A DNA stretch of 64,000 nt from contig CAZUDE010000002.1 of NCBI GenBank assembly GCA_964619205.1, positions 61,420 to 125,419 on the forward strand, given 5' to 3'. Position numbers and translations under genes: made by a program. Every line of letters starts with the position of its first letter. The first letter of the stretch is position 1. This DNA comes from an uncultured Desulfobacula sp. Lineage in GTDB: Bacteria; Desulfobacterota; Desulfobacteria; Desulfobacterales; Desulfobacteraceae. Shown piece by piece: positions 15,513-37,230 of this stretch. Under the pieces are notes generated by a model. The model saw nothing but the letters and a program-made list of their open reading frames with translations. It searched no databases and was not told the DNA's origin.

Positions 15513-15547
15513 ATTGTTATAATTGGTTGATAATGGTAATTATTTTT
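15513..15547. promoter_or_regulatory. Shared 22-bp motif (copy 1) plus Fur-box-like site upstream of the TonB-dependent receptor
   Basis: ATTGTTATAATTGGTTGATAAT is 19/22 identical to 36792-36813; 15529-15547 GATAATGGTAATTATTTTT matches the E. coli Fur consensus at 15/19; TTGACA at 15599. Confidence 0.5.
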
Positions 15548-15716: not shown

Positions 15717-17735
15717 ATGAAAACAGTTGGGAAATTTTTAGCAGTCATATTATTTTTAATGATCCTTCCCATGGGTCTTGTTTCAGCTGAAGAAAAAAAA
15801 CAGCAGAGCCAGATCTTTGATCTCGGGGAGGTACTGATCATGGACAAAGGGGATGAGATCAACAGTATCACCACGACAGAGACGGTATCGATGGAGGATA
15901 TTGAAATGCAGGGGGCCCAGACCGCTGCAGACGCCTTGGAAATGATTCCGGGGATTGATGTCATGACCACTGGCAAGAACCAGTCAAGTATCAGGCTCAG
16001 GGGCTTTGATCAAAAACAGGTTAGAGTCCTGATTGACGGTGTTCCTGCCCATGAATCCTATGACGGATCCCTGGCTCTGGATATGATCCCCGTGGATTCC
16101 ATTGCCAGGATAAAAATCATCAAAGGTGCTTCATCCGTTCTTTACGGCCCCAATACCCTGGGCGGGGTCATTAACATCATCACTAAAAAAGGCGGTGAAA
16201 AACCTTATACCAGTCTGATAACATCATTCGGGCCCAATGATACCCAGAATTATATTGTCAACCACGGTGCGTCAAAGGGAAACTGGAATTACTGGGTTAC
16301 GGCAAGCCGCAGAAAATCGGGCGGGTATGACCTTTCCGATGATTTTGATAAAAACAACACACGGACAGGCCTGGGAACCGATTATAATGAGGACGGGGGT
16401 GTCAGGGATTTAAGCTATTATACAAAGAATACCTTTAATTCAAAAATCGGGTATGAGTATGATGCCACGTCAAAACTCTATCTGTCCTTTGATTATCATG
16501 AGAATGAAAAAGGCATCCCCACAATGCAGAAAAGATACTGGGAGTTTACCAACTGGGACCAGTGGCAGCTGAGTCTGGCAGGGGAGCATGATTTTACAGA
16601 CATCCTGTCCCTGAAGGCCAGGGTATATTATGTGGATCACGACGACAGCATTGAAGATATCGGCGGCTGGGATGCAAGCCATACCACTCCCGTGTCAAGA
16701 AAATGGTTTGAACGAAGCTCCTATGAGGACTATACCCTTGGCGGAGAAGTCCAGGCATATCTGGATTTCGGGGATGTGAGTCTTTTAAAGATGGGTCTTA
16801 ATTATATGAAAGATAATCATCAGGAGCAGGATTATCTTGATGCCACGTGCAGAGAAGTTGCCGGAGCTCCTTTTTATCCAGTGGGATACCGGCCTTTGAA
16901 AGAATTTGAAGCTGATGTTTATTCCTTTGGCATCGAAGATGAGGTTAAACTGACCAAACAGCTGACCCTGAATGCAGGGGTGAGTTATGATGTCTATAAA
17001 CCGGTTAAAAATTATTTTAATTATGTCCGTGATGATATTAAGACCTGGAACCCCCAGACAGGAGTGTCCTTTGATGTGACCGAGAATTTTAACCTGTATG
17101 CGTCAGTCGGTAAAAAGACAAGATTTCCACAGTTAAAAGAGCTTTACAGCGTTGTTGCCGGTGGAAACGCCAGCCTGAAGCATGAAGAAAATATAGCCTA
17201 TGAAATCGGAGCAAAAAAAAGATTCAACAAGATATTTGATATGTCTGTAGCTGCTTTTTTTAATGATATTGAAAATAGAATCGATCGGCAAGGCAGTGCG
17301 TATTTGAATAAATTTGAAACTGAAATCAAAGGGATTGAAACCCAGTTGAACATCACAACACCCTGGAACCTGGATGCTGCATTGAGTTATACATTTATTT
17401 CTTCAGAGGAAAAGGCCACGGCTTCGAGCACTGTGACAGATGCCGCAAACGTTCCCGGCCGAAAGGCAAGCCTTGATTTGAGGTATGCCTTTGATTTTGG
17501 GCTCACAGCATCTTTTCAGGCCATTTATACATCAGATCAGCTCGATACCTACGCTGTCAGGTACAAGGAATTTACTGTCTGCAATGCCAGGCTGAATCAG
17601 GCCATTCCCATTTTTGAAAAGGTTTCCACAGACCTTTTTCTGGAATTTTCCAATATTTTTGATGAAAATTATGAAGAAGGATGGGGCCCGACTCCGGGGA
17701 GAAGTTTTCTGGCCGGCATGAAATTCAGTTTTTAA
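15717..17735 (+). CDS. TonB-dependent outer-membrane receptor
   Basis: Signal peptide; plug motifs IRLRGFDQKQVRVLIDGVP and IKIIKGASSVLYGPNTLGGVINIITKK; C-terminal PGRSFLAGMKFSF ending in Phe. Confidence 0.96.
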   Translation: MKTVGKFLAVILFLMILPMGLVSAEEKKQQSQIFDLGEVLIMDKGDEINSITTTETVSMEDIEMQGAQTAADALEMIPGIDVMTTGKNQSSIRLRGFDQKQVRVLIDGVPAHESYDGSLALDMIPVDSIARIKIIKGASSVLYGPNTLGGVINIITKKGGEKPYTSLITSFGPNDTQNYIVNHGASKGNWNYWVTASRRKSGGYDLSDDFDKNNTRTGLGTDYNEDGGVRDLSYYTKNTFNSKIGYEYDATSKLYLSFDYHENEKGIPTMQKRYWEFTNWDQWQLSLAGEHDFTDILSLKARVYYVDHDDSIEDIGGWDASHTTPVSRKWFERSSYEDYTLGGEVQAYLDFGDVSLLKMGLNYMKDNHQEQDYLDATCREVAGAPFYPVGYRPLKEFEADVYSFGIEDEVKLTKQLTLNAGVSYDVYKPVKNYFNYVRDDIKTWNPQTGVSFDVTENFNLYASVGKKTRFPQLKELYSVVAGGNASLKHEENIAYEIGAKKRFNKIFDMSVAAFFNDIENRIDRQGSAYLNKFETEIKGIETQLNITTPWNLDAALSYTFISSEEKATASSTVTDAANVPGRKASLDLRYAFDFGLTASFQAIYTSDQLDTYAVRYKEFTVCNARLNQAIPIFEKVSTDLFLEFSNIFDENYEEGWGPTPGRSFLAGMKFSF

Positions 17736-17798: not shown

Positions 17799-18932
17799 AT
17801 GACCAAGGCATTAAAAATGACAAAATCAAAAATTTTATGGTCTCTTTTCTGTGTCATCATCTTTGCTTTTCTTTTCAGGGTTTATCTTGTTCATGAATCG
17901 AAAAATAAGGAAATTCCGGGCAAAACCCGCACCGTTACAGACATGAAGGACCGCACCTTTGAGGTGAAAGATCCCATAAACCGGATTGCTCTTTTAGGTG
18001 GCCCCACAGGCCAGATTGCATTTATCCTGGGAATCCAGGATCGTCTTTGCGCCGTGACCAATACCCTTAAAATGTCGCCCCTGGTCAGGGAAATGTATTT
18101 AAAGATCAAAGATCTTCCGGGGCCCCGGACCACATCGGGCAGTATCAACATTGAAGAACTCATCCGGTCAAATCCGGATATTGCCGTGGCAGGTGATATT
18201 GACGGCAATATCGTTCTTGAAAAAACCCGTATCCCCGTGGCCTTTCTCTCAGACAGTATGGGGGAAGGCCTTGTGGATATCAAAAAGGAAGTCCTGTTTT
18301 ACGGGTATCTGTTCAATGCAAAGGACAGGGCGGAAAAATATGTTAAATTTCTGGACCGGGTCACCGGTCTGGTGAGGCAAAGGACTAAGGACATCCCAAA
18401 AGATGCCAAGAAGACTGTTTTCCAGGGCTATAACCCCAGTCACCTTGTGACCCTGGGCGGAGACACCTTCATGCAGGAGCATATTGAACTTGCAGGCTGC
18501 TTGAATGCGGCGGAAACCATCACCACCCTGGGCGCACAGACCGGTCTTCATTCAGGGCTCGGCGAAGTGTCCATGGAACAGGTGCTGGACTGGAATCCGG
18601 ATATCCTGGTGATTAATTACGGGACATCTGATGACCTTTATACTGACCCCCAGTGGAATAAGATCAAGGCGGTGCAGGACCAACAGATTTTTTTTCAACC
18701 CGCCGGGATTTTTATTTTCAACCGGCCCACGGCAGAGTCGGCCGTTATTTTTCCTTTATGGCTGGCAAGCACGGCTTATCCGGACAGGTTTCAAGACCTT
18801 TGTATAAACTGTATTGTGAAGGAATTTTACAAGGAGATCCTCGGGTTTGATCTCAATGACGATCAGGTCAGGGGTATTCTTCTGGGGACCTATGAATTAA
18901 AAATGATGAAGGGGATCAGCCATAAAGGATAG
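17799..18932 (+). CDS. Fe/B12-type ABC substrate-binding protein (set 1)
   Basis: TVTDMKDRTFEV, NIEELIRSNPDI, VSMEQVLDWNPDIL. Confidence 0.9.
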   Translation: MTKALKMTKSKILWSLFCVIIFAFLFRVYLVHESKNKEIPGKTRTVTDMKDRTFEVKDPINRIALLGGPTGQIAFILGIQDRLCAVTNTLKMSPLVREMYLKIKDLPGPRTTSGSINIEELIRSNPDIAVAGDIDGNIVLEKTRIPVAFLSDSMGEGLVDIKKEVLFYGYLFNAKDRAEKYVKFLDRVTGLVRQRTKDIPKDAKKTVFQGYNPSHLVTLGGDTFMQEHIELAGCLNAAETITTLGAQTGLHSGLGEVSMEQVLDWNPDILVINYGTSDDLYTDPQWNKIKAVQDQQIFFQPAGIFIFNRPTAESAVIFPLWLASTAYPDRFQDLCINCIVKEFYKEILGFDLNDDQVRGILLGTYELKMMKGISHKG

Positions 18933-18993
18933 AGTCCGACATATCCAGGGAAGGTCCAACGCCTTCCTGCCGGAAACCTGGATCAGGATTTTT

Positions 18994-19965
18994 ATGTTTG
19001 TCCTTGTCCTGGTTGTAGTTTCATCCCTAAGCCTTGGCCGGGTGAATATTCCTTTTTTCCAGACGCTGAAGATCCTTTTTTCCCCTGTGTTTTCCCTGGA
19101 ACCGGACTGGTCCTCAACCACTTATTCAGTGGTCATGGATGTGAGACTGCCGCGGGTTCTGGCCGGAGTCCTTGTTGGGGCTGCGCTTTCCATATCCGGT
19201 GCATCTTTCCAGGGAGTGTTCCAGAACCCCCTGGTAAGCCCGCATATCCTGGGGGTGGCCTCGGGGGCCGGGTTCGGGGCAGCCCTGGCCATTCTTTTTT
19301 TTGACAATCTCTTCCTGATTTATTTTACCTCTTTTATATTCGGTCTGGCATCAGTGGCCATGACCTATGCCCTTTCAAGGGTGTATAAAATGACCCCGGT
19401 TCTTATGCTGGTCCTGTCCGGAATTGTGGTGGGGTCTTTGTTTTCAGCTTTGACATCGCTTCTGAAATATATTGCCGACCCCATGAACAAAATGCCGGCC
19501 ATTGTGTTCTGGCTTCTGGGATCGCTGAATCATGTGTCGTTTAGAAATCTTCTGATCACTGCGCCCCTCTTTATTATCTGCATTGCCGTCCTGCTTATGG
19601 TCAGATGGCAGATCAACCTTTTGTCCATGGGAGAAGAGGATGCAAAATCCCTGGGGGTAAACACCGAAACCCTGAAAGTCCTTATTATTGTCAGCGCCAC
19701 CATTGCAACGGCATCCGCCGTCTGCATCAGCGGCATCATAGGCTGGATCGGCATCATGATCCCCCACATCGGCCGGCTCATTGTGGGCCCTGATCATAAA
19801 TACCTGCTTCCCATTTCCATGGTCATCGGCGCTGCCTATCTTGTGGCTGTGGATACCATTGCCAGGACCGCACTTGCCACGGAGATTCCCATCGGAATAC
19901 TGACGGCGATTTTCGGGGCGCCCGTATTTGCTTTTTTACTCAGAAAAAGCCAGGGAGCTGCCTGA
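18994..19965 (+). CDS. FecCD/BtuC-family ABC permease (set 1)
   Basis: VRLPRVLAGVLVGAALSISGASFQGVFQNPLVSPHILGV, IGWIGIMIPHIGR. Confidence 0.95.
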   Translation: MFVLVLVVVSSLSLGRVNIPFFQTLKILFSPVFSLEPDWSSTTYSVVMDVRLPRVLAGVLVGAALSISGASFQGVFQNPLVSPHILGVASGAGFGAALAILFFDNLFLIYFTSFIFGLASVAMTYALSRVYKMTPVLMLVLSGIVVGSLFSALTSLLKYIADPMNKMPAIVFWLLGSLNHVSFRNLLITAPLFIICIAVLLMVRWQINLLSMGEEDAKSLGVNTETLKVLIIVSATIATASAVCISGIIGWIGIMIPHIGRLIVGPDHKYLLPISMVIGAAYLVAVDTIARTALATEIPIGILTAIFGAPVFAFLLRKSQGAA

Positions 19966-19968
19966 ACC

Positions 19969-20781
19969 ATGATTGGCCGGATCGACATACGCCATCTTTC
20001 CTTTGGGTATTCGGATCAAAAAGAAGACGCTGTCTTTACCAATATTACGATGTCCCTTGAACCGGGGCAGGTTTTCTGTCTTCTGGGGCCCAATGGATCA
20101 GGCAAATCCACCCTGCTCAAATGCATTACAAGGCTCTTGAAACCTGCCAGGGGAATGGTGACCATTGACGGAGAAAATATTACGGCATCAAGTTCAAACA
20201 AGATAGCAAAGAAACTGGGCTATGTCCCCCAGAGTCTTGTTTCGGCATTCCCGTTTACCGTGGAGGAAATCGTGGTCATGGGAAGAGCATCAAAAATCAG
20301 CATGATCTCTTCGCCTTCAAAAAAGGATCAGGACAAAGCCCGGGAATCCATGGAAAGGATCGGCATTGCCCATTTGGCGAGGCGTCCATGCAACAGGCTT
20401 TCAGGGGGGGAATGGCAGCTGGTCCTGATTGCCAGGGCCCTGACCCAGTCACCAAGGGTGCTGCTTTTGGATGAACCCACCTCCCACCTGGATCTGGGCA
20501 ACCAGGTGAAAATCCTGGAGGTGGTCAATACGCTGTCCAGGGACGGCATCACCATTATCATGGCCTCCCATTTCCCGGATCATGCATTTTTAAACGCTGA
20601 CCAGGTCGGTATCCTGAAAGGCGGGTCCATGAAGACCCTGGGAAACCCGGACAAGGTGTTGACCGAAGAGGTTCTTTTTTCCACCTATGGTATCCGGATC
20701 AGGGTCATAGAGATGTTTGAAGGGATTAACAGGAAGGTCTGTGTCCCGGTCTTAAAACAAGGCATAAAGGGAAATCCTTGA
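19969..20781 (+). CDS. FecE/BtuD-type ABC ATP-binding protein (set 1)
   Basis: GPNGSGKS, LSGGEWQLVLIARAL, LLDEPTSHLD. Confidence 0.95.
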   Translation: MIGRIDIRHLSFGYSDQKEDAVFTNITMSLEPGQVFCLLGPNGSGKSTLLKCITRLLKPARGMVTIDGENITASSSNKIAKKLGYVPQSLVSAFPFTVEEIVVMGRASKISMISSPSKKDQDKARESMERIGIAHLARRPCNRLSGGEWQLVLIARALTQSPRVLLLDEPTSHLDLGNQVKILEVVNTLSRDGITIIMASHFPDHAFLNADQVGILKGGSMKTLGNPDKVLTEEVLFSTYGIRIRVIEMFEGINRKVCVPVLKQGIKGNP

Positions 20782-20920: not shown

Positions 20921-20987
20921 CCCAGGAAAAGGGCGGATATTTATGGCCCACGGGCAACAGATCAGCGTTTATATAGTGGGAGGTATT

Positions 20988-22016
20988 ATGAAAACAACTA
21001 AAATTCTATGGATGGGGCTGTCCATCGGTCTTGGGGTTTGTTTTTTTTATGGGTGTGATTTTATCTCACAAAAACAGGCACAAACCCGGACCATCACCGA
21101 CCAGATGGGAAGAGAGGTGACCATCCCCAAACACCCCAAAAAAATTGCAGCCCTTCATCATTTTGGCGGAAAAATCATGTATGCCCTGGGCCGGCAGGAT
21201 TTCTTGGCAGATCAAAGCATCTACGGCAAAGAAGCCGAGGCCAGGCATAAAATCGATCCGGTCTTTGCGGCCCTGCCGAAAATCATCGAATCCCACGGGT
21301 ATAATGTGGAAGGCCTGGTCAGCCTGAACCCTGAAATCATCTTTGCCTATGCATCCATGGACAAACTGGAAATGGACCAGTTTGAAAATTCCGGAATCCC
21401 GGTGGTGGCCATAAAAGGGGAAACCCTGGAAGAAAGTTATACCGCCATCCGGCTGGTATCGGATGTGATGAATTGTAAAGAAAGGGGTGAATTTTATATC
21501 AAGGCCTGTCAGGATCTTGTGAATATGGTGCAAAGCCGCCTTGAAAGTCATGTGGAAAAACCCCTGGCCGTCATGTTTGCAGGGCCCAGGAGCATTTTTT
21601 CCGTTGCCACGGGCAATATGCTGCAGAACCAGATCCTGAACCTGTCCGGCGCATTCAATGTGGCACGGGAATTAAGCGGGTTCTGGGCAAATGTGTCGCC
21701 GGAGCAGATTGCAAAATGGAACCCGGATGTAATTTTTTTGGGCTCCTATCTGGATGTTTACGGCAAGGACAAAATCCTTGAAAATCCCCAGTTCCAGACC
21801 GTTACCGCCATAAAGGAAAAAAAGATTTTTACCTTTCCCTCCAATATCGGGTGGTGGGATTACCCGGCTCCCCATTGCGTCCTGGGTGTGGTCTGGTGCG
21901 CCAAAACCATTTATCCGGATCTTTTTGCCGATATCGACATGATGGCCGTGGCCAATGAATTCTACAAACAATTTGTGGGGTATACATTTGAAGAAATGGG
22001 AGGCAGGCTGGATTGA
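20988..22016 (+). CDS. Fe/B12-type ABC substrate-binding lipoprotein (set 2)
   Basis: Lipobox-like FYGC, TITDQMGREVTIPKHPKKI, VSPEQIAKWNPDVI; GGAGG RBS before 20988. Confidence 0.92.
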   Translation: MKTTKILWMGLSIGLGVCFFYGCDFISQKQAQTRTITDQMGREVTIPKHPKKIAALHHFGGKIMYALGRQDFLADQSIYGKEAEARHKIDPVFAALPKIIESHGYNVEGLVSLNPEIIFAYASMDKLEMDQFENSGIPVVAIKGETLEESYTAIRLVSDVMNCKERGEFYIKACQDLVNMVQSRLESHVEKPLAVMFAGPRSIFSVATGNMLQNQILNLSGAFNVARELSGFWANVSPEQIAKWNPDVIFLGSYLDVYGKDKILENPQFQTVTAIKEKKIFTFPSNIGWWDYPAPHCVLGVVWCAKTIYPDLFADIDMMAVANEFYKQFVGYTFEEMGGRLD

Positions 22017-23026
22017 AAAAAATTCTGATCACAGGCGGGCTGGTTTTCCCAGTGGTTTTATTCATCTGCCTCAGCATCGGCCGGTATCCCATTGAACCGG
22101 GCCGGGTGGCCGGGCTCCTCTTGGCTCCCTTTGGCATTGAAAATCGGCTTTTTGAAGCCCCCATGGATATGATGATGATTTTCTGGAATGTCCGGGTGCC
22201 GAGGATTATTCTAAGCATTTTTGTGGGAGCCGGGATTTCCACTGCAGGGGCTGTGTTCCAGGCCCTTTTCAGAAACCCGCTGGCTGCCCCGGATATCCTT
22301 GGGGTAACCTTTGGCTCGGGTTTTGGCGCAGCCCTGGCCATCATGTTTTTTGCCCCTGTTGCCCTGGTGATCCAGACCAGTGCCTTTGCCTTTGGGATCA
22401 CAGCGGTCACCCTGGCCTATATCCTGGCATCCCTGAGCCGTGACAGCTCCCCTTCGGTCCTGGTCATCTCCGGGATTGTGATTTCCGCGATATTCCAGGC
22501 CGGGCTTTCTTTTATCATGTATATTGCCAACCCCTATGACCAGCTGGCCCAGATTGTGTTCTGGACCATGGGCAGTTTTAATACCGCGTCCTGGATCAAG
22601 GTTGGGGCAACCGTGCCCCTGCTCTTGCCCGGCATTATGCTCATCATGATTTTTTCCTGGCGGCTGAACATCATGACCCAGGGAGAGGAAGATGCCGGGT
22701 CCATGGGCATCCATGTGGTGAGATGGCGGTACTTTTATGTCATCGTCAGCACCCTCATGGTGGCCTCTTCCGTGGCAAATGTGGGGAATGTGGCCTGGAT
22801 CGGGCTCATCGTACCCCATATTGCCAGGTATCTTGCCGGGTCTGAACACCGAAGACTCATCCCCATGACAGCCATGCTGGGGGGATTGTTTCTCATGGTC
22901 ATGGATACGGTGGCAAGAAGCGTCATGCTTTCTGAAATCCCCATCAGTATTGTCACCTCCATATTCGGCGCTCCCTTCTTAGGGTATCTGGTGGTCAGCG
23001 CCGGGAAAGCAAGGGTGTTTTCATGA
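22013..23026 (+). CDS. FecCD-family ABC permease (set 2)
   Basis: VRVPRIILS, QALFRNPLAAPDILGV, WIGLIVPHIAR. Confidence 0.95.
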   Translation: MKKILITGGLVFPVVLFICLSIGRYPIEPGRVAGLLLAPFGIENRLFEAPMDMMMIFWNVRVPRIILSIFVGAGISTAGAVFQALFRNPLAAPDILGVTFGSGFGAALAIMFFAPVALVIQTSAFAFGITAVTLAYILASLSRDSSPSVLVISGIVISAIFQAGLSFIMYIANPYDQLAQIVFWTMGSFNTASWIKVGATVPLLLPGIMLIMIFSWRLNIMTQGEEDAGSMGIHVVRWRYFYVIVSTLMVASSVANVGNVAWIGLIVPHIARYLAGSEHRRLIPMTAMLGGLFLMVMDTVARSVMLSEIPISIVTSIFGAPFLGYLVVSAGKARVFS

Positions 23027-23811
23027 ATCTCAGAGTTGAAAATATCAGTGCGGGATACGGCAAGAACCCTGTGATTTCCCTTGTCAACCTCACCGTGGCA
23101 CCGGGCAGGATCTGCGCCCTCATGGGCCGGAACGGGTCGGGCAAAACCACCCTGCTCCGCTGCATCAACGGGCTTTTGCCTTCCAGTGAAGGCAGGATCA
23201 TCCTCATGGGCCGGGATATAAAAAAACTCAGCCGGGACAAGATTGCAAGGATGGTGGGTGTTGTCCCCCAGGTGAGCGTTACCCCGTTCTCCTTTTCATG
23301 CCTTGACATGGTCCTGATGGCTGGGGCGGCCCGGATCAAAGCCTGGTCAGCTCCGTCAAAAAGAGACCACCAAAAAGCCCTGGGCGCCATGGCGGAAACC
23401 GGGATAGACCATATGGCAAAGAGGGCCTTTAATACCCTTTCCGGCGGGGAGAGGCAATTGGTCATGCTGGCCAGGGGGCTGTTCCAGGACACGCCCATCA
23501 TGCTCCTGGACGAGCCCAATTCCCATCTTGATTTTGCCAACCAGCATAAAATCATGGCCCTGATGCAGCGGCTTGCCAGAAAACGGAACATGACGGTTCT
23601 CATTACCCTGCATGACCCGAACCTGGCCCATTATTACTGTGATGATGCCATCCTTATCCACCAGGGCAGGGTCCGGGCCGCAGGAGAGATTGGTGTGACC
23701 CTGACCAACGAGGTCCTGTCCTGTGTTCTGGGGGATGATATTGAATGCGATGTAACAAAAAAAGGAGTGTTTGTGGCGATTCCCAAACAGATCCCTCAAA
23801 ATATGAATTAA
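23023..23811 (+). CDS. FecE-type ABC ATP-binding protein (set 2)
   Basis: GRNGSGKT, LSGGERQLVMLARGL, LLDEPNSHLD, HDPNLA. Confidence 0.95.
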   Translation: MNLRVENISAGYGKNPVISLVNLTVAPGRICALMGRNGSGKTTLLRCINGLLPSSEGRIILMGRDIKKLSRDKIARMVGVVPQVSVTPFSFSCLDMVLMAGAARIKAWSAPSKRDHQKALGAMAETGIDHMAKRAFNTLSGGERQLVMLARGLFQDTPIMLLDEPNSHLDFANQHKIMALMQRLARKRNMTVLITLHDPNLAHYYCDDAILIHQGRVRAAGEIGVTLTNEVLSCVLGDDIECDVTKKGVFVAIPKQIPQNMN

Positions 23812-23822
23812 AAGGTGAAGCT

Positions 23823-24833
23823 ATGAAATGTAATTTTTGCGAACACAAATGTGATCTGACCAAGGGAAAAAGTTTTTGCGGCATGTACAAAGATGAAGGG
23901 GGCAGGGCGGCTGAAATCTACCCGGACCGCTGGTGCACCTATTCCCCCTCACGGATCGAATCGGTTCCCTTTTACCATGCCTACCCCGGATCACGGTCCA
24001 TGATCATCGGAACGGCAGGCTGCAATTTCCGGTGCAGGTACTGTTCCAATTCCTTTATCGCCTGTCAGGACCCGGCCGATATCCAGGACGTCATGTTTGA
24101 ATTTTCAGGGGAGAAACTTGTGGCCATGGCAAAGAAGCTGGGGTGTCACAATATCATTTTCAATGTCAATGAACCGGCCGTGTCCCTGCCGAGCCTCATG
24201 CGGGTGTCTGAATATGCAATAAAGGAAGGCATTCCCATGGGATGTCTTACCAACGGCTATACCACGGAAGAGTCCACCCTGATGCTTGCCGAGATCTTTT
24301 CTTTTGTCCATGTCGGGCTGAAAGGCTTTTCCAATAAATTTTACAGGGAATTTGTGGGCGTGAGCAGCATTGACCCTGTCTTAAGAAATATCTATACCCT
24401 GTCCCGGCATTGCCATATAGAGATTGCCTCTCCGGTCATTGAAAACATCAATGACCATGAACTCAGTGAAATTGCGGAATTCATCTGCGATATCAACCCG
24501 GAAATTCCCTGGCATGTGTTCCGGCTTCTGCCCGAGCATAACATGAAGGATTTCCAATACCCGGATATTGAAAAGATGAATAAGGCCCTGGAAACAGCGA
24601 GAAATTATCTTCCTTTTATCTATTTTCATAATTTTGTTGGGTCCAACTGGGTGAACACGCTTTGCCCCGGTTGCGGGGCTGCCGTGATCAAACGGTTCAG
24701 CCTGGGATGCTCCGGGGACCGGCTGGATGAATTCCTGGCACCCGGCAATACCTGTTCAAGCTGCGGAACCAAAATCGCCATGCTGGGAACCAAGGTGGCC
24801 TGGACGGAAAAACGTGAAAAGGAGAATGTTTAA
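23823..24833 (+). CDS. Radical SAM enzyme, AmmeMemoRadiSam/PFL-activase-like
   Basis: GCNFRCRYC (CxxxCxxC); N-terminal CxxCxxxC..C; RIESVPFYHAYPG; C-terminal TLCPGCG. Confidence 0.9.
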   Translation: MKCNFCEHKCDLTKGKSFCGMYKDEGGRAAEIYPDRWCTYSPSRIESVPFYHAYPGSRSMIIGTAGCNFRCRYCSNSFIACQDPADIQDVMFEFSGEKLVAMAKKLGCHNIIFNVNEPAVSLPSLMRVSEYAIKEGIPMGCLTNGYTTEESTLMLAEIFSFVHVGLKGFSNKFYREFVGVSSIDPVLRNIYTLSRHCHIEIASPVIENINDHELSEIAEFICDINPEIPWHVFRLLPEHNMKDFQYPDIEKMNKALETARNYLPFIYFHNFVGSNWVNTLCPGCGAAVIKRFSLGCSGDRLDEFLAPGNTCSSCGTKIAMLGTKVAWTEKREKENV

Positions 24834-24834
24834 A

Positions 24835-26007
24835 ATGAGTCTCGCCATAATTGATGCAAGGCAGTGGCAGAACCGGTTTGACCTTGAATCAGGCCGGCCC
24901 ATGGATTCGGATCATCCAATGGCCGCCATGATCAGCAAGGTCCTAAGCTGGAACCCATACCCCGGCGACATGGATGAAAAAGCCAATGAATGGGTAACCC
25001 GGACAGCTCTGGACCTGGTCGAGAAATATGAGCCCGGCCTGGTCTGTTTAAGCTATGTCCACCAGTTTTTCAGCCATCGCCATTTTGCCCATTCAAAAGA
25101 GGACTGGGAAAAGATGTGTGAAACTGTCATGGCAGAAGCACAAAAATTTATCCATCTATCCGGCTATACCCCGGTCATTATCGGCACCGGTGCCATGATT
25201 CCCTTAAAGGGCGAAATGAATCTTTCAGGCATGGACGGGCTGGCCATATCTTCCAACTGGTCGGCCCGGTATTGCGGGGTTCACCAGCCAAGCCCGGCCG
25301 ATATGGAATTGCTCCATGGGTTTGTGGCAGAGGGAAAGATTGAACGCATTGTAACCAAGGATGAATGGATCGATCTTTTCAGATCAGAACAGCCGGATAT
25401 AAAAATTCATCAGGATGAAGCGCTCATGCCTGACTTCCTGGTTGTTTCCAACGAGGGATATGCCTTCAAGACCATGGGAACGACCCTGAGAAAGCCTGTG
25501 AATATTCCTGAAAATAATTTCAACATCCCTGTGTATACCCGTCTGGGCAATCTTGATGATCTAAGGGGAATCAAACAATTGGTTCGGTCAAACCTTGAAC
25601 ATCACAAGATTGCCCTGATCCTTGTGGAAGGAGTTGGAAAAGAGTTTTTTCCGGCTGATCACTCCCTGTGCAGAAACGGCTGCGGCTGGTTCTGTAACGA
25701 ACCGGGAGATGCTTTTTACCTGACCCTTTCCACAGGAAAACACGAACCTTTTGCCTACCCGGCAGGATGCCGGTCCTTTGACCGGGATGCGGAAACCATA
25801 AAATTTCCTTTTTCAGGCTATATGCTCTCCATCCCGGAAAACACCCTGGCACAGGATTATCCGGGAAAAAGCATTGCCGTTGGGAACCGGAGCATGTTCA
25901 TGCACATGATGTTCGGCGTGGACATGAGTATTGAATGTTTTGCCCGGAACCTGTTCAACCAGGGATGCCTGGGCGTGATTCACAGGATGGGTAAATATGG
26001 GAAATAA
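24835..26007 (+). CDS. Hypothetical protein translationally coupled to the radical SAM gene (weak alkaline-phosphatase/phosphodiesterase-superfamily resemblance)
   Basis: About 390-aa ORF with GGAG RBS, operon-packed; ANEWVTRTALDLVEKYEPGLVCLSY only loosely recalls PhnA/NPP segments. Confidence 0.7.
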   Translation: MSLAIIDARQWQNRFDLESGRPMDSDHPMAAMISKVLSWNPYPGDMDEKANEWVTRTALDLVEKYEPGLVCLSYVHQFFSHRHFAHSKEDWEKMCETVMAEAQKFIHLSGYTPVIIGTGAMIPLKGEMNLSGMDGLAISSNWSARYCGVHQPSPADMELLHGFVAEGKIERIVTKDEWIDLFRSEQPDIKIHQDEALMPDFLVVSNEGYAFKTMGTTLRKPVNIPENNFNIPVYTRLGNLDDLRGIKQLVRSNLEHHKIALILVEGVGKEFFPADHSLCRNGCGWFCNEPGDAFYLTLSTGKHEPFAYPAGCRSFDRDAETIKFPFSGYMLSIPENTLAQDYPGKSIAVGNRSMFMHMMFGVDMSIECFARNLFNQGCLGVIHRMGKYGK

Positions 26008-26698: not shown

Positions 26699-26768
26699 TT
26701 GGAAAGAAGGCGAATCCTTGGAAGGATTCAGCCGTTCTAATAAAACAACTCAAATAAAGGAGAACAAC

Positions 26769-26912
26769 ATGTGTGACTGCAAATGCCAACACCCGGATAA
26801 GTTAAAAGACAAGCCTGAAAACTGTACACCCCGGCAGATTGAAGAATGCCATGGGAAAACAGGGGAGCATGCCTGTACCTGCGAGTCTGAAAAAGAGAAA
26901 AAAACAGAATAG
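26769..26912 (+). CDS. 47-aa Cys/His-rich mini-protein (metal-binding candidate)
   Basis: AAGGAG RBS; MCDCKCQHPDKLKDKPENCTPRQIEECHGKTGEHACTCESEKEKKTE has 7 Cys and 3 His. Confidence 0.7.
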   Translation: MCDCKCQHPDKLKDKPENCTPRQIEECHGKTGEHACTCESEKEKKTE

Positions 26913-26935: not shown

Positions 26936-27598
26936 ATGCCGGTTGATAATCCGTATTTAGAAGATGAAGAAGATAAAAAAGCAGCCATGGAAATGGATGA
27001 AATCGTTAAAACCATATTTGCCCCGATTTATCCTGAGATTGCCGGGCAGATCAAATCCATGCACAAGATTACCACCGGCATTTGCATCGACCTGGGTGCA
27101 GGTCCGGGAGCCCTTTCCATTTGCCTTGCAAAGATCACGGACCTTCACCTGTATGCAGTGGACAAATCACCCCACGCATTTTCCATCGCCACCCAAAATA
27201 TTAAGGATGCAGGCCTGGATGACCGGATCACCCCGGTGAAATCCGATATCGTCAACATGCCCTTTGAGAACAATTTTGCAGACCTCATGATCTCACGGGG
27301 GTCTATTTTTTTCTGGCAGGATATGGCAGGTGCATTTAAAGAAATCTACCGGGTCTTGAAACCCGGAGGGGAAACCCATATCGGCGGAGGATTCGGCACA
27401 TCGGAATTGAAAAAAGCCATTTTTGAAGAAATGGCGCAAAGAAAGGACGGGTTTGAAGACCGGAGCAAAAAGCGGGGAAGCCCGGAAAATATGAAGCGCA
27501 TCAAAGAGGCCCTGGATGAAACCCTTCCCGGTCAATACAGGATGACGCAGTCGGATATCGGGTTCTGGATTTATATCACAAAGGAAAAGGCCTCATGA
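26936..27598 (+). CDS. Class I SAM-dependent methyltransferase
   Basis: CIDLGAGPG motif I, MPFENNFADL, YRVLKPGG. Confidence 0.92.
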   Translation: MPVDNPYLEDEEDKKAAMEMDEIVKTIFAPIYPEIAGQIKSMHKITTGICIDLGAGPGALSICLAKITDLHLYAVDKSPHAFSIATQNIKDAGLDDRITPVKSDIVNMPFENNFADLMISRGSIFFWQDMAGAFKEIYRVLKPGGETHIGGGFGTSELKKAIFEEMAQRKDGFEDRSKKRGSPENMKRIKEALDETLPGQYRMTQSDIGFWIYITKEKAS

Positions 27599-29337
27599 AA
27601 TGCGGGATATGCGAGATCGGCTGTCACCTTGAGGAAAATGGATATGGCAAATGCCGGATGATCACCCTCAGGGGAGGGGTGTTTATGGAACGGTATCCGG
27701 ACAGCTGGTCCACCATGTTCCCCATTTCCATAGAAACCCTGCCAACCCTGCATTTTTATCCCAGCCATAAATTTTTGCAGGTGTCTTCCATGGGATGCAA
27801 TTTTTCCTGTTCCGGGTGTATTTCAGAAATGCTGACCCTGGGGACTGAAACCATTTATAAGACCTTAAAGACGCTGCCGCCTGAAAAAGTCATTGAAAAG
27901 GCTGTAAAAGAAAACTGCAAGGGAATTGCTTTTTGCATCAATGATCCCACGGTTTCTTTTTATTCGTTTTTAAAATTGGCCCGGGCGGCAAAAGAAAAGA
28001 ACCTGTTGGTGGGATTTTCAACCAACGGGTATTTTACCAGTCAGGCCCTTGAAGCCCTGATCCCCTTTACGGATTTTGTAAATATCGGGTTTAAGGGGTT
28101 TTCCGACAAAGCTTATCAATCCTGCGGAGTCCCTTCGTCAGCACCGGTTTTCAGGAATATGAAAAGGCTGTTTGACGCAGGGATTCATTTGGAGGCTGCC
28201 GTCATCCACTTAAAAGGGCGGGAAGAGGATGTCGTCCGCATTGCCGGGTTTGTTTCCTCCCTGTCGCCTGATATCCCTTTCCAGGTCATGCGGTTTGTCC
28301 CTTTTGGTGAAGCAGAGATTGAATTTGAACCCACCATCCGGGAATCCGAATCCCTTTGTGGCGGGTTGAGCAAAACCCTGACCCATGTGTATCTGTTTAA
28401 TTCCCCCGGCTCGGATCTGTTAAATACCCTGTGCCCGGTCTGCGGGAAAACCGTCATCACCCGGGAGTTCTTCGGACCCATGGGAGCAAGAATTGTGGAT
28501 CATGGGATCGATGTCCGGTGTGTTTGCGGCAGCCGCCCCATGATCAAAGGGGAGGTGGCTGAAACCCGGTATGATGAACATGGTTTTTTTGGCGGGTACC
28601 GAACCACCCGGGCCTTTGAAATGCTCCAGGCGATTCTCACCTGCATGGGTGCGGATGACCCTGAAAAAATACCGGAACTTTGGTTTGACATCATGGAGAC
28701 CGATTATCTCAAAGAATTCCATGAAACGGTTCATCTGCCGGAAGCTTATGGTAACATCATTGATCTTCTGGCTCGAAAAACCGGTTGCGAAAAAGCCGGA
28801 GACCGGCTGAAAACCTTTATCAACCAGACCCTGTCCCATATCCGGTTAAGGGCCTGTTCTGCAGACCGGCCAAAGGTCTACTATGCCATGGGCTATCCCT
28901 TGTTTGCCCTGAATGCGGAACGCTTTGAAACCAACCTGGTGGAGGCGGCCGGCGGGAACTGCCTGAACAAGCAGTTGACCAGAAAAGGAAAACCAGGGGT
29001 CTCCATCACGCGGGAAGAATTGATGCGGATGAACCCGGATTTTATTTTTATTTCCGGTTTTTTGTCCTGCCCGGTGTCTGATTTTTATGATTATTGTATT
29101 CGCCATGATATTCTCGTGAATGCAGTGAAAAACAACCGGATCTATGACCATTTTCCCCTATGGGATTTTGGCAGCCCGAGATGGGTTCTGGGCCTCATGC
29201 ACATTGCCAATACCCTTCACCCGGAAATTTTTGAGTTTGACATAAAAAAAGAAGCAGATGCATTTTACACTGAGTTTTTTAAACAGCCCTTTAATCAGAA
29301 AACCGCCAACAGATCTTTTTACAGAGTCTCAAGATGA
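27595..29337 (+). CDS. Radical SAM enzyme (AmmeMemoRadiSam-like) fused to a periplasmic-binding-protein-like C-terminal lobe
   Basis: GCNFSCSGC and TLCPVCG; C-terminal third (VEAAGG..ITREELMRMNPDFIF..AVKNNRIY..WDFGSPRWVLG..HPEIF) parallels the C-lobe of the locus SBPs; no signal peptide. Confidence 0.85.
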   Translation: MKCGICEIGCHLEENGYGKCRMITLRGGVFMERYPDSWSTMFPISIETLPTLHFYPSHKFLQVSSMGCNFSCSGCISEMLTLGTETIYKTLKTLPPEKVIEKAVKENCKGIAFCINDPTVSFYSFLKLARAAKEKNLLVGFSTNGYFTSQALEALIPFTDFVNIGFKGFSDKAYQSCGVPSSAPVFRNMKRLFDAGIHLEAAVIHLKGREEDVVRIAGFVSSLSPDIPFQVMRFVPFGEAEIEFEPTIRESESLCGGLSKTLTHVYLFNSPGSDLLNTLCPVCGKTVITREFFGPMGARIVDHGIDVRCVCGSRPMIKGEVAETRYDEHGFFGGYRTTRAFEMLQAILTCMGADDPEKIPELWFDIMETDYLKEFHETVHLPEAYGNIIDLLARKTGCEKAGDRLKTFINQTLSHIRLRACSADRPKVYYAMGYPLFALNAERFETNLVEAAGGNCLNKQLTRKGKPGVSITREELMRMNPDFIFISGFLSCPVSDFYDYCIRHDILVNAVKNNRIYDHFPLWDFGSPRWVLGLMHIANTLHPEIFEFDIKKEADAFYTEFFKQPFNQKTANRSFYRVSR

Positions 29338-29344
29338 TGCAGAT

Positions 29345-31615
29345 ATGAAACAGAAAAACCTAACCATATTTTGTTTTCTTTTGTGCTGGATCTTTCTGGT
29401 CCCGCCGGTATCTTCCATTGGCATTTCAGAACCGTGTCCCCCTTTTTTTCTGAGAACGGACAAGGGCGAGATCATCAATCCCATTTCAGGAGAAAATGCA
29501 GACCAGCCTTATTCAACCCGCAAAACCTGCGGCTCCTGCCATGATGTGGATACAATATCCAAGGGCTATCATTTTATGATGGACTGGGACAAGGCAGACG
29601 ATGAGCGGTTCAAGGATACGGATACCCCCTGGCTGGTATCCACAGGTCTCACCGGCAGCCTCTCCCCCTATGGATATTTCCAGCTGGCCAAAAAGAAAAA
29701 TACCCATGCCCATGAAATCGATCTCACAGCCTTTGATTTTGTTGCCAGGGTGCCGGAAGCCTTTAAGGGGTTTCAGAAACCCGGCTGTGCCGGATGCCAT
29801 GCCGGGGGCGGCATGCTGGAATTTGACCGCGACGGAATACGCTACGATCTTCGGCTGGCCAAAAACCCGGAACTGGCCGACACCCTGGACGGCGATTATT
29901 ATAAAAGCCGCTGGGATAAAACCGGGGTCGTTGAACCGGACTGCTTTTTCTGCCATGGAAACCGCTATCAGATCCAGGCAAGAATCACCCAGATCAAACA
30001 CCTGAATTTTAAATGGGCCGGGGTGGAAGGCTCAGGGATCGGAAAGGTCTTTGGCCGGGTCAGCGAGGGCCAAATCCCCAAAGTCATTTATAACAAGCGT
30101 CTCTTTAATGAGGACGGCACTTTTTATATGCCGGACATGGTCTTTAGGCCAGGGGCAGAAAGCTGCCTTCGATGCCATGCATCCATTGATCTCGGCAAAC
30201 GGGGGAATTCCTGGGACGATCCGGTCAACCCGGATGTCCACCACCTTGCCGGTCTCACCTGTATTGACTGCCACCCCGGAGACATCAGCCATAATTTTGC
30301 CAAGGGAAACGCCATGGACGGCAAAGTGGCCGAAGACCTTGACAATACCATGCGCTCCTGTCGGGACTGCCATAGCCAGGGGTATAAAGGCGCAACCCGG
30401 ATGAAACACCGGGGAATCCGGCAGGACCATCTTGACAAGCTCTCCTGCGAAGCCTGCCACATCCCGGAATTGAAGCGGAGCGCTGTGGGCGCCATGTTCC
30501 TGAATACCGGCGTATTTGGAAAACACGGCCAGGCAGACACCAAAGCCTTTGGCGATGAAAAACCATGGAAACCCGCTTATGTGATCCGGGAAAAAGACAG
30601 GGATGGCATGCCGCGAATCACCCCGGTCAATCCTATGCTCAACATCTTGTTTACCAATAAAAACGAAAACGGGGTTTATGTCCCGCTTTTTCTTTCAGAG
30701 GTGGAAAAGGCCTACGAGCAATGCAAAGACAAGATGACCAAAAGAAAATCAGCCTATGATTTCCATAACCCCGAAGATATCGTTCTCATGCTCTCCACCT
30801 TGACCCTCACCCTGGACGGAAACAAAAGGTTTGGCAATATAGCCCCGCATTTTCACACCGGCGGAAACCTCTATTCATTAAATGAAAATTCCTCCCTGGA
30901 AATCCAAAAAGATCCCTCCTGGGTGATCCGGCTCCCCTATTTTTCCATCAGCCATAATGTGTCTCCAGCTGACAAAGCCATTGGCAAAGGCGGCTGCAAA
31001 GACTGCCATTCAAAAGACTCCCATCTTTTCAACGGTCTGGTGGTAACGGATTATTTCGGCAACCAAGGAAATCCGGTTACGGTTTCCATGGCAGGGTTCC
31101 TTGAACTGCCCGCCTCGGCTCAAAAATGGAATGGGGTTTTCGGAGCCTGTCTGAAAACCGGCCCCCTTTTTTTTAAGGCAGGCATCGGCATGCTCTTATT
31201 GCTGGCTGCTGTTGCGCTTTTTACAGTTCGTCCCTTCATGCCCGGGTTTTTTTCATCCATTGCCCTGGTGTTGAGTTTCCTTATAGCCCATTTTTTAATC
31301 ACAAAACAGACAGGGGTTCTCACATCGGTACAAAACACCTTCATGGGCAGTTCATTTTTCCTGGGGCTCTCTCTGATGCTGCTGACAGCTGCCGGCTATA
31401 TTTTTCAGGTTCAAAAAATGGTAAAAAACAAATTCCTGTTGGCAGGATTGTATGGATTGGGGAGTTTAGCCGCAGGCACAGGCGTATTATTATATATGCG
31501 TCCAATGTCGGATATTGCTTCAATGTTTATTGCCCTGGGGATTCACATCCTTTTTGCAGTGCTGATGATCACGGTTCTAATTTGTCTTTTTTTTATAAAA
31601 AGCCCGGAGTCTTGA
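29345..31615 (+). CDS. Membrane-anchored octaheme cytochrome c (MmcA/octaheme tetrathionate reductase-like)
   Basis: Signal peptide; 8 CxxCH motifs (CGSCH, CAGCH, CFFCH, CLRCH, CIDCH, CRDCH, CEACH, CKDCH); about 5 C-terminal TM helices. Confidence 0.9.
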   Translation: MKQKNLTIFCFLLCWIFLVPPVSSIGISEPCPPFFLRTDKGEIINPISGENADQPYSTRKTCGSCHDVDTISKGYHFMMDWDKADDERFKDTDTPWLVSTGLTGSLSPYGYFQLAKKKNTHAHEIDLTAFDFVARVPEAFKGFQKPGCAGCHAGGGMLEFDRDGIRYDLRLAKNPELADTLDGDYYKSRWDKTGVVEPDCFFCHGNRYQIQARITQIKHLNFKWAGVEGSGIGKVFGRVSEGQIPKVIYNKRLFNEDGTFYMPDMVFRPGAESCLRCHASIDLGKRGNSWDDPVNPDVHHLAGLTCIDCHPGDISHNFAKGNAMDGKVAEDLDNTMRSCRDCHSQGYKGATRMKHRGIRQDHLDKLSCEACHIPELKRSAVGAMFLNTGVFGKHGQADTKAFGDEKPWKPAYVIREKDRDGMPRITPVNPMLNILFTNKNENGVYVPLFLSEVEKAYEQCKDKMTKRKSAYDFHNPEDIVLMLSTLTLTLDGNKRFGNIAPHFHTGGNLYSLNENSSLEIQKDPSWVIRLPYFSISHNVSPADKAIGKGGCKDCHSKDSHLFNGLVVTDYFGNQGNPVTVSMAGFLELPASAQKWNGVFGACLKTGPLFFKAGIGMLLLLAAVALFTVRPFMPGFFSSIALVLSFLIAHFLITKQTGVLTSVQNTFMGSSFFLGLSLMLLTAAGYIFQVQKMVKNKFLLAGLYGLGSLAAGTGVLLYMRPMSDIASMFIALGIHILFAVLMITVLICLFFIKSPES

Positions 31616-31635
31616 CGATTCCGGGCTTTTTATAA
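31593..31635. terminator. Rho-independent (bidirectional-type) terminator ending the first half of the uptake locus
   Basis: Perfect 16-bp arms TTATAAAAAGCCCGGA / TCCGGGCTTTTTATAA spanning the cytochrome stop codon. Confidence 0.8.
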
Positions 31636-31725
31636 GTAGCTATATGATTTTTTAAGATAGTCATTTATAATTATCCTGATTATAACTCAAGCATCATATA
31701 TTTTTATATGATAGGATTTTAAAAA

Positions 31726-36710: not shown

Positions 36711-36791
36711 TAGTACTCCTTCATTTTTTTGCAGGTTATAGAAAAAACCCGCTGAAAAGTCAATCTTAAAGATGAGTGTTTATGGTTGCAA

Positions 36792-36823
36792 ATGGTTATA
36801 ATTGGTTAATATTAATCATCATT
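36792..36823. promoter_or_regulatory. Shared 22-bp motif (copy 2) plus Fur-box-like site in the divergent promoter before the exbBD-tonB operon
   Basis: ATGGTTATAATTGGTTAATATT (19/22 vs 15513-15534); 36805-36823 matches the Fur consensus at 14/19; TTGACA at 36835. Confidence 0.5.
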
Positions 36824-36900
36824 TGTAATTTTGCTTGACAAAATCAACCAAAACACCTAATCAGATGTGATTATTTTGTAACTGTACTGGAATGTGAAAA

Positions 36901-37230
36901 ATGAACATGATTTTAGACCGGGCCTGCCTGTTTCTAAATCGGGAGCTCCATGAAATCCCAGAAATCCGGGAAATTATTGTAAATCCAAATTTTACAGGCG
37001 TACCCCTGGAAAATGATGACATGGGCATGGCCATGAACATCCGGCAAGGGTCTTGCAGGGATAATTATTCCATCAAGGAAATTGTAAAGGACAAGACTGT
37101 GGCCATTGTCGGATTCGGCGGCAATGTCACCAAGATTTCAAGCCGGGCAGCCAGGGTTTATGTCATGGAACCGGAACGGTTTTTTTCAGAATCAGGACAG
37201 GAGCTGTTTATACAGAAAAACAAATCATGA
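36901..37230 (+). pseudogene. Internally collapsed DUF364/DUF4213-like gene
   Basis: N-terminal NFTGVPLENDDMGMAMN joined to a Rossmann-like KDKTVAIVGFGG..RVYVME segment in only 109 aa. Confidence 0.5.

Follow-up and report, generated by a model that had tools for sequence, protein, structure and literature searches.

Why should an operon for TonB-dependent uptake end in a gene for an octaheme cytochrome? The question arises in a stretch of 64,000 nucleotides from an uncultured Desulfobacula sp. (contig CAZUDE010000002.1, positions 61,420 to 125,419), which we analysed as a whole and refer to as the window. On its forward strand, a cytochrome gene with eight heme motifs and a predicted membrane tail follows genes for a TonB-dependent receptor, two ATP-binding cassette (ABC) importers and radical S-adenosylmethionine (SAM) enzymes. 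Our tentative answer, held with somewhat less than even confidence, is that the product is a quinol-linked periplasmic reductase for an imported metal chelate and that it was recruited to the uptake operon. The main argument comes from the gene neighbourhood in related bacteria.

The window proteins were compared by tblastn with 85 related loci, and only loci that were inspected directly were counted. At all 11 distinct orthologue loci (at least 59% identity, Desulfobacteraceae: L001, L002/L011, L004/5, L006-L010 and L012-L014, with short upstream flanks in L008 and L010), genes for a binding protein, a FecCD permease and an ATPase lie on the same strand as the cytochrome gene. Most of these loci also carry the receptor gene and a gene for a secreted deaminase-like protein, the latter being the commonest direct neighbour of the cytochrome gene. 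The order of the genes varies: receptor, deaminase, cytochrome, DUF364, periplasmic binding protein (PBP), FecCD and ATPase in one variant; receptor, PBP, FecCD, ATPase, a 138-aa protein, deaminase and cytochrome in another; and, elsewhere, either the Desulfobacula order seen in the window or shortened Desulfotignum versions without the deaminase gene. The cytochrome gene was always at or near the 3' end of TonB-dependent/FecCD-type ABC uptake operons in Desulfobacteraceae. The link to uptake and radical SAM genes that had been proposed in a preliminary description of the locus was therefore kept throughout the orthologue loci in several gene orders. Because the linkage survives gene rearrangement, it argues for a functional connection between the cytochrome and the uptake system.

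Of the 71 loci with no more than 56% identity, only L020 had importer genes nearby, a FecCD/ATPase match about 10 kb downstream. The loci of P0033, P0039, P0104 (without a deaminase gene), P0065 and P0107, the last fused to a cytochrome b domain, were inspected individually and proved to be unrelated contexts or stand-alone genes. The occurrence of orthologues in unrelated respiratory contexts, which the preliminary description had named as an observation that would tell against it, was thus seen only for more distant proteins: the orthologues were always in uptake operons, whereas paralogues, and relatives with no more than 52% identity, were in unrelated, mostly stand-alone contexts.

Within the window, the cytochrome gene begins 7 nt past the stop codon of a gene for a radical-SAM/PBP fusion, and the genes overlap or are tightly spaced from 20943 onward. 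A strong terminator was found only after the cytochrome gene. Its hairpin has a folding free energy of -29.2 kcal/mol (z = -8.2), which none of 200 shuffled sequences reached, and was missed by an automatic consensus terminator scan; the cytochrome gene is accordingly the last one before a strong terminator, as had been described. The 7-nt gap, the tight packing and the one strong terminator make it probable that a single transcript runs from the receptor promoter to the terminator and covers the cytochrome gene together with the 13 genes upstream of it. The region was matched in groundwater DNA metagenomes, with no RNA run among the matches.

The reading frame translates without a stop codon into 756 residues. 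All eight of the CxxCH motifs that the preliminary description had claimed were counted, whereas 20,000 shuffles of the protein never gave more than 2, and no other open reading frame (ORF) in the window has two or more. A motif scan of the protein found no CX3CH, CX4CH or CxxCK. The quoted run DVHHLAGLTCIDCH...HNFAKGN...DNTMRSCRDCH...HLDKLSCEACHIPEL was recovered in the translation, and the tail described as crossing the membrane several times is borne out by a hydrophobic stretch (residues 605-756) and by five modelled helices. All eight heme motifs are kept in 34 full-length relatives. Nine conserved histidines outside the motifs (76, 299, 316, 355, 362, 474, 504, 537 and 560) are possible distal ligands for the eight hemes. 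Because the heme motifs, these nine histidines and two transmembrane (TM) histidines are kept down to 42% identity, the cytochrome must be under purifying selection. Pfam matches above cut-offs were to generic multiheme domains alone (Cytochrom_c3_2, Cytochrome_C7, MtrC/MtrF and c554).

The N-terminus (MKQKNL) is followed by a hydrophobic stretch at residues 4-29, after Lys2/Lys4, which fits a Sec signal, and Cys31 is kept in 97% of the relatives. Judged by these features, the product is a Sec-exported multiheme c-type cytochrome with a periplasmic part of about 560 residues. The preferable start is 29345: a frame opened at the alternative ATG at 29258 would overlap the gene before it and leave the signal peptide buried. 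In the public database, the identical protein, P0001 (679 aa, 90% coverage), begins at Met78 and lacks both the signal peptide and heme 1; this entry is truncated at its N-terminus and under-calls the gene (window 29345-29575).

The structure was modelled with AlphaFold2 (AF2). A model built on 109 sequences (predicted local distance difference test, pLDDT, 86.3; predicted TM-score, pTM, 0.83) places the helices of the tail at residues 590-627, 633-652, 671-692, 696-718 and 724-750, and shows a beta-rich insert of about 150 residues (380-530) in the periplasmic part. An earlier model built on 34 sequences (pLDDT 52.8, with the heme core below 50) was not used in the fold search. A Foldseek search of the better model against the PDB gave nothing below E = 0.3, with no multiheme protein among the 50 top-ranked matches listed and only insignificant helical bundles at the tail; apo models of multiheme proteins are poor in secondary structure, which makes this a weak test. 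The alignment of the tail matched that of the C-termini of paralogues that bear PF01292 in hhalign (97.6%, E = 3.8e-12, 118 columns, four helices). By this comparison, the tail is homologous to the quinone-interacting cytochrome b domain of the FdnI/HydC type, which fits the link to the quinone pool through the C-terminal helices that had been suggested earlier. His734 is the counterpart of the first of two heme-ligating histidines in the last helix of the paralogue domain. The tail is therefore a degenerate cytochrome b; no more than one heme would be accommodated in it, close to the periplasmic face.

The protein database held 689 homologues in three groups. The first, which includes the closest relatives in metagenome-assembled genomes (MAGs) of Desulfobacula and Desulfotignum as well as proteins from other Desulfobacteraceae MAGs, shows 59-76% identity, equal length and the same tail. 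The second (42-57% identity) has the same architecture. The third is much larger, spans many phyla at 35-50% identity and ends in a PF01292 (FdnI/HydC-type) cytochrome b; its public names are 'formate dehydrogenase subunit gamma' and 'cytochrome b/b6 domain-containing protein'. These b-fused cytochromes align with the window family from end to end (hhalign E = 3e-208), so that the two families are homologous along the full length, membrane domain included, and have their eight hemes at the same positions; K285-R286-G287 is invariant in both. They differ in that the b-fused proteins keep four or five conserved histidines of the diheme b domain, are encoded by stand-alone genes in many phyla without transporter linkage, and have a TGA codon or Cys at the position of Ser107.

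That TGA accounts for an oddity of the public entries. The b-fused database proteins have no signal peptide and all begin with 'AKKxN', because a conserved in-frame TGA ('GMMGKF*PPSFRQLAKK') splits the gene calls in two and separates the signal peptide and heme 1 from the larger remainder, to which the name 'formate dehydrogenase subunit gamma' is given. At 25 loci from several phyla, an invariant hairpin, UUUCGCC-AGUU-GGCGAAA, lies 12 nt past the TGA, and other b-fused members have Cys at the TGA position. Such a combination characterises selenocysteine/cysteine pairs served by a bacterial selenocysteine insertion sequence (SECIS) element and marks the b-fused cytochromes as a probable selenoprotein family. 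A 2026 selenoproteome review, in which we did not find the family, names just ExtKL and the TIGR04315 proteins annotated in GenBank; the family appears to be an unrecognised and mis-annotated selenoprotein family that extends over many phyla. The pentaheme selenoprotein MccSep/ExtKL (PMC13510729) was considered as a member of the same family and rejected, as it differs from the octaheme b-fused paralogues.

The deep-branching members with five TM helices retain Cys at this position (GSFCTVPYRQ). In the clade of the window protein, the residue is Ile, Thr, Leu or Ser, and no SECIS-like hairpin was found in that clade. In the periplasmic domain, identity is 53.7% between the uptake-linked clade and the Cys-retaining five-TM clade, 46.6% between the uptake-linked clade and the b-fused family, and 49.9% between the Cys-retaining clade and the b-fused family; these pairwise identities, which do not amount to a rooted tree, fit a window clade that is the most derived of the three. 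Having lost the residue, the window clade offers a natural comparison for its role.

In the reading that we favour, the tail would take electrons from menaquinol and would retain no more than one b heme, close to the periplasmic face, with His649 and His734 as its ligands. The eight c hemes, with the nine conserved histidines as distal ligands, would pass electrons to the cargo in the periplasm. This cargo would be a redox-active metal chelate brought in by the receptor, with an Fe(III) chelate as the leading candidate, and its reduction would take place before or during ABC import. The loss of selenocysteine/cysteine would fit a protein that gave up small-molecule catalysis in favour of outer-sphere electron transfer. 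We regard as doubtful a more far-reaching evolutionary claim, namely that a selenocysteine-dependent quinol oxidoreductase resembling octaheme tetrathionate reductase (OTR) lost this residue and one b heme and was recruited by strictly anaerobic Desulfobacteraceae as a dedicated part of TonB-dependent chelate uptake; driven by quinol, it would reduce imported complexes of iron or other metals and form a new class of c-type metallophore reductase, unrelated to FoxB, FhuF and the SIP-type enzymes.

Several observations weigh against reduction of an imported chelate. The tail alone matched none of the Pfam families at E <= 10, PF01292 (Ni_hydr_CYTB) included. Three of the four canonical heme-b histidines have no counterpart in the tail (H548, H587 and H699 in the numbering of the paralogue P0046), and His649 and His734 lie at different predicted depths in their respective helices, which leaves both heme b binding and reactivity with quinol uncertain. 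The loop at residues 106-110 has low model confidence, and heme 2 may have no distal ligand, which would point to catalysis and not to pure electron transfer. With regard to the cargo, the nearest solved relative of the receptor is BtuB (E = 2e-26), and those of the binding proteins are 4HN9 (an uncharacterised 'iron complex' protein), MolA (molybdate/tungstate) and CeuE/NikZ (CeuE being Ni-binding). The Fur-like sites described below are imperfect, with 4-5 mismatches to the E. coli consensus. Finally, the corresponding operon of Desulfobacula toluolica has no cytochrome gene, so that the cytochrome is dispensable for uptake in that organism.

Because of this last observation, the cytochrome is better seen as an accessory module than as a core component of the system. 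In D. toluolica Tol2 (L090; FO203503.1 1069867-1090514), we found the same 14-gene operon with a gene for a DUF364 'heavy-metal chelation' protein in the place of the cytochrome gene. The operon encodes a receptor, two ABC sets, a radical SAM enzyme, a protein of no recognised family, a deaminase, a small ORF, a methyltransferase and a radical-SAM/PBP fusion; the DUF364 gene is followed by one for a selenocysteine-containing formate dehydrogenase alpha subunit (CART*HAP). As the organism can be cultured, it provides a natural minus-cytochrome comparison. No relevant publication turned up in a literature search on the Desulfobacula operon.

The strongest of the alternatives is import and remodelling of a tetrapyrrole (corrinoid or heme). 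There, the cytochrome would reduce the bound metal in the periplasm, for example Co(III) to Co(II), the secreted deaminase, of purine/pyrimidine type, would alter a purinyl ligand, and the cytoplasmic radical SAM enzyme, methyltransferase and PBP fusion would process the cofactor. The relationship of the receptor to BtuB is in line with such a pathway, as are the best matches of the permease (BtuC models) and the ATPase (heme/corrinoid ATPase models), the weaker matches of the binding proteins to BtuF, HmuT and IsdE, the nearest solved relatives of the deaminase-like protein (TadA and guanine deaminase), and the fusion of a cytoplasmic radical SAM enzyme to a domain of the BtuF/HmuT superfamily. 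However, every transporter match is below its family cut-off, including those of the receptor, whose top NCBIfam hits are models of receptors for heme, siderophores and B12, and the receptor lacks the FRAP/NPNL motifs of heme receptors. An Rfam scan found no riboswitch, cobalamin included, at the gathering threshold or at E <= 1, the sub-threshold matches being to the terminator hairpin only. The searches of the PDB with the binding proteins, the receptor, the deaminase-like protein, the 426-aa protein and the radical-SAM/PBP fusion identified no cargo. The Fur-like sites also fit iron better than a tetrapyrrole; heme uptake, too, is commonly iron-regulated. On balance, we consider the tetrapyrrole pathway unlikely.

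The sites in question precede two transcription units. No match to the E. coli Fur consensus within 3 mismatches was found in the window. The two best Fur-box-like matches are a site with 4 mismatches at the receptor promoter (reached in 7 of 2000 composition-matched shuffles) and one with 5 mismatches at the ExbB/TonB promoter (70 of 2000), and each lies directly after a copy of the 13-mer GTTATAATTGGTT. This 13-mer occurs twice in the window, and none of 100 shuffles contained two copies. The arrangement suggests a shared operator at the two promoters and provides a modest hint of iron regulation of the uptake genes; such hints to the cargo as there are point weakly to iron.

A second alternative gives no functional meaning to the position after the uptake genes and takes the cytochrome for a respiratory or detoxifying quinol:substrate oxidoreductase acting on small inorganic S, N or Se species, as OTR does and as the selenocysteine-containing b-fused paralogues presumably do. 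Its basis lies in the relatives: OTR and MmcA are the nearest curated families, the paralogues are stand-alone and carry selenocysteine or Cys between hemes 1 and 2 as catalytic enzymes do, K285-R286-G287 is invariant across both families, and no distal ligand can be assigned to heme 2 in an obvious way. However, the selenocysteine/cysteine position is Ser, Ile, Thr or Leu throughout the uptake-linked clade, and it is this clade that shows the FecCD linkage at each orthologue locus despite rearrangements, a linkage absent from the relatives that retain the residue. The gap of 7 nt to the upstream gene also argues against an accidental position. We therefore judge a small-molecule reductase improbable.

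Very improbable, finally, is a protein that reduces no cargo at all and is a redox sensor, an electron sink or source for periplasmic proteins such as the purple-acid-phosphatase-like one, or a decaying remnant of a b-fused cytochrome, as would be suggested by the degenerate b domain, the hybrid histidine kinase gene that follows and the phosphatase-like gene near the operon end: the kinase gene lies past the strong terminator and is not conserved beside the orthologues, the phosphatase-like gene is on the opposite strand in the window, and the heme motifs and histidines are conserved as described above. The secreted purple-acid-phosphatase-like protein (Pur_ac_phosph_N + Metallophos) is encoded at 34631-35890 on the minus strand. 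Its counterpart in D. toluolica Tol2 is also near the operon end (L090:19525-20648), and at L087:6674-7927 an orthologue (46% identity) is directly upstream of, and co-directional with, the gene for the cytochrome P0033, in a context that is otherwise unrelated. The hybrid histidine kinase gene is located 3' of the cytochrome gene in the window.

The remaining features of the locus are listed with their coordinates in the table. Several of the upstream genes merit comment in their own right. The radical SAM/PBP fusion (27595-29337, plus strand) resembles AmmeMemoRadiSam and PflA-type activases, has an N-terminal Cys cluster and no signal peptide, and its PBP part is a Peripla_BP_2 domain of the FhuD/BtuF/HmuT superfamily. 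We know of no characterised precedent for such a fusion, and its composition suggests that the imported ligand may itself be a radical-SAM substrate. The deaminase-like protein belongs to a large Desulfobacteraceae family and, given its Sec signal peptide, should act in the periplasm; a secreted nucleobase-type deaminase within a TonB/ABC uptake operon has no obvious explanation. The 47-aa ORF in the 237-bp gap between the deaminase-like and methyltransferase genes has a good ribosome-binding site, is 86% conserved in L006, L007 and L010, and has a 56-aa gene in its slot in D. toluolica; it possibly encodes a small metal-binding protein. Beyond the terminator are genes for ExbB, ExbD, TonB and a third ABC set. 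The stretch at 36711-37226, upstream of the DUF6802 ORF, is apparently coding from about 36900 (MNMILDRACLF...VAIVGFGGN...) and may represent another short gene or an N-terminal extension of the ORF at 37227.

Table. Features of the cytochrome gene, its operon and related loci (window coordinates unless a locus is named; aa, residues of the cytochrome or of the protein named).
Feature	Position	Strand	Evidence
Gene for 756-aa octaheme c-type cytochrome with C-terminal membrane domain	29345..31615	+	translation, motifs, HMMs (hidden Markov models)
Sec-type signal peptide (predicted), aa 1-29, MKQKNLTIFCFLLCWIFLVPPVSSIGISE, before conserved Cys31	29345..29431	+	hydrophobicity; modelled helix 2-18
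Heme 1, CGSCH, aa 62-66	29528..29542	+	motif scan, relatives' alignment
Ser107, position of selenocysteine (TGA)/Cys in paralogues, lost in uptake-linked clade	29663..29665	+	alignment
Heme 2, CAGCH, aa 148-152	29786..29800	+	motif scan, relatives' alignment
Heme-core stretch, aa 196-378 (MmcA model 105-286); its C-terminal part and a few residues past it, aa 295-394 (OTR model 176-272)	29930..30478	+	NCBIfam HMMs
Heme 3, CFFCH, aa 200-204	29942..29956	+	motif scan, relatives' alignment
Heme 4, CLRCH, aa 274-278, then invariant K285-R286-G287	30164..30178	+	motif scan, relatives' alignment
Heme 5, CIDCH, aa 306-310	30260..30274	+	motif scan, relatives' alignment
Heme 6, CRDCH, aa 339-343	30359..30373	+	motif scan, relatives' alignment
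Heme 7, CEACH, aa 368-372	30446..30460	+	motif scan, relatives' alignment
Heme 8, CKDCH, aa 551-555	30995..31009	+	motif scan, relatives' alignment
Predicted five-helix membrane domain, aa 590-750; helices 2-5, degenerate FdnI/HydC-type cytochrome b	31112..31594	+	hydrophobicity, AF2, hhalign
His649, invariant, clade-specific, periplasmic end of TM2; candidate heme-b ligand	31289..31291	+	relatives' alignment
His734 in TM5, kept in 97% of relatives; aligns with heme-ligating His of paralogues	31544..31546	+	alignment, hhalign
Intrinsic-terminator hairpin, 20 bp, loop holding the TGA stop, with U-run	31592..31636	+	folding
13-mer GTTATAATTGGTT and Fur-box-like site, upstream of receptor gene	15516..15547	+	motif scan
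TonB-dependent receptor, probable first gene of the cytochrome's transcription unit	15717..17735	+	HMM, PDB search
ABC importer set 1: Peripla_BP_2 binding protein, FecCD permease, ATPase	17799..20781	+	HMM, PDB search
ABC importer set 2: binding protein, FecCD permease, ATPase	20943..23811	+	HMM, PDB search
Radical SAM enzyme (AmmeMemoRadiSam-like) and 426-aa protein of no recognised family	23745..26007	+	HMM, PDB search
CDA-fold deaminase-like protein, secreted; signal peptide and intact zinc motifs (HAE, PCPMC)	25997..26698	+	HMM, PDB search
Small Cys/His-rich ORF, 47 aa, MCDCKCQHPDKLKDKPENCTPRQIEECHGKTGEHACTCESEKEKKTE	26768..26911	+	ORF, conservation in Desulfobacula-type operons
SAM methyltransferase, then cytoplasmic radical-SAM enzyme fused to Peripla_BP_2 domain	26936..29337	+	HMM, PDB search
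Twin site, 13-mer and Fur-box-like, upstream of DUF6802-ExbB-ExbD-TonB operon	36795-36823		motif scan
TGA-bearing paralogue loci (L016-L034, L040, L047, L048, L063, L083, L088, L089)	e.g. L023:10229-10231, L088:6980-6982		

The cytochrome can be compared with four known systems, the first two of which, MmcA and OTR, had been named as look-alikes in the preliminary description. They are indeed the two best matches among the 18,950 NCBIfam models scanned. The MmcA model (TIGR04314) scored 50.2 bits (E = 1.7e-13, hemes 3-7) and the OTR model (TIGR04315) 48.9 bits (E = 5e-13, hemes 5-7), far below the respective cut-offs of 250 bits (equivalog) and 375 bits (subfamily), so that the resemblance stands at the level of the superfamily only. 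A b-fused paralogue matches both models in the same register, with its OTR alignment extending over hemes 3-7. Searches of the PDB by phmmer and by profile returned weak NrfA matches around hemes 5-6 and not the OTR structure 1SP3, which Foldseek did not recover from the PDB either. As judged by these scores, the heme core is a distant relative within the OTR/MmcA/NrfA-type multiheme superfamily and lies in none of those families.

The seven heme motifs of MmcA (MA0658) comprise five CXXCH, one CX3CH and one CX4CH; the protein has no TM segment, is always encoded in an Rnf operon, is restricted to Methanosarcinales, and is a sister group of OTR and an electron conduit linked to membrane carriers (10.1101/2023.04.20.537704). 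None of its defining features (the heptaheme pattern, the lack of TM segments, the position as first gene of an Rnf operon, the occurrence in Methanosarcinales) was found in the window protein, which has eight canonical CxxCH motifs and five predicted TM helices and belongs to an uptake operon in Desulfobacteraceae. No Rnf gene is among the neighbours of the cytochrome gene, which are transporter, radical SAM and methyltransferase genes. With these features and the scores of about 50 bits, membership in the MmcA or OTR family was ruled out. OTR (Shewanella oneidensis SO4144, PDB 1SP3) shares with the window protein the periplasmic location and the eight CxxCH motifs. OTR has a catalytic Cys near heme 2 (10.1101/2023.04.20.537704), of which the selenocysteine or Cys between hemes 1 and 2 of the paralogues is reminiscent. 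The window protein differs in its beta-rich insert, its C-terminal membrane domain and the presence of Ser107 at that position: the Lys-x-selenocysteine/cysteine of the paralogues is replaced by Ser105 and Ser107. In OTR, a conserved Lys ligates heme 2, with the catalytic Cys close by; no such Lys/Cys active-site pair was identified in the window protein, whose part ahead of heme 3 gave no alignment with OTR.

In overall architecture, the protein is like the inner-membrane bc-type quinol oxidases CbcL/MtrH/MtoC (Geobacter sulfurreducens GSU0274), which likewise consist of an N-terminal periplasmic multiheme c part and a C-terminal HydC/FdnI-like b domain. For proteins of this type, a role in linking the menaquinone pool with acceptors in the periplasm has been proposed (PMC6295460). 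CbcL carries nine CX2CH motifs and two b hemes and spans the membrane with six TM helices, whereas the window protein has eight motifs and five helices and lacks most of the b-heme histidines; CbcL also serves extracellular electron transfer and not uptake. Desulfobacula, Desulfotignum, Desulfobacca and Fundidesulfovibrio are absent from the supplementary lists of the CbcL survey, and Desulfobacterales appear there in the ImcH table only, with none in the CbcL table (PMC6295460).

With regard to the proposed role, the closest counterparts are the siderophore reductases, although metal release from imported chelates is poorly known in strict anaerobes. The siderophore reductases known so far, whether periplasmic or cytoplasmic, use b heme, flavin or Fe-S centres, and FoxB holds b-type hemes in a PepSY-type membrane domain. 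FoxB-type proteins of Pseudomonas are inner-membrane heme proteins that take part in ferric-siderophore uptake downstream of TonB-dependent transporters (10.1101/2021.01.28.428567). The genomic logic is the same for the window cytochrome, which is encoded with TonB-dependent uptake genes, and the reductase function would be shared as well; there is no relationship in sequence or fold, the window protein being a c-type octaheme cytochrome. By analogy, it would be a c-type functional counterpart of periplasm-facing siderophore reductases such as FoxB. If so, a low-potential octaheme cytochrome that draws on the quinone pool within an uptake operon would be a different solution to the same task, one suited to chelates of very low potential, and a family of respiratory enzymes would have been re-used for nutrient acquisition. 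Set among these systems, the protein is best described as a conserved, uncharacterised member of the multiheme superfamily that appears to be a variant both of the c-b fusion quinol oxidoreductases and of the periplasmic metallophore reductases.

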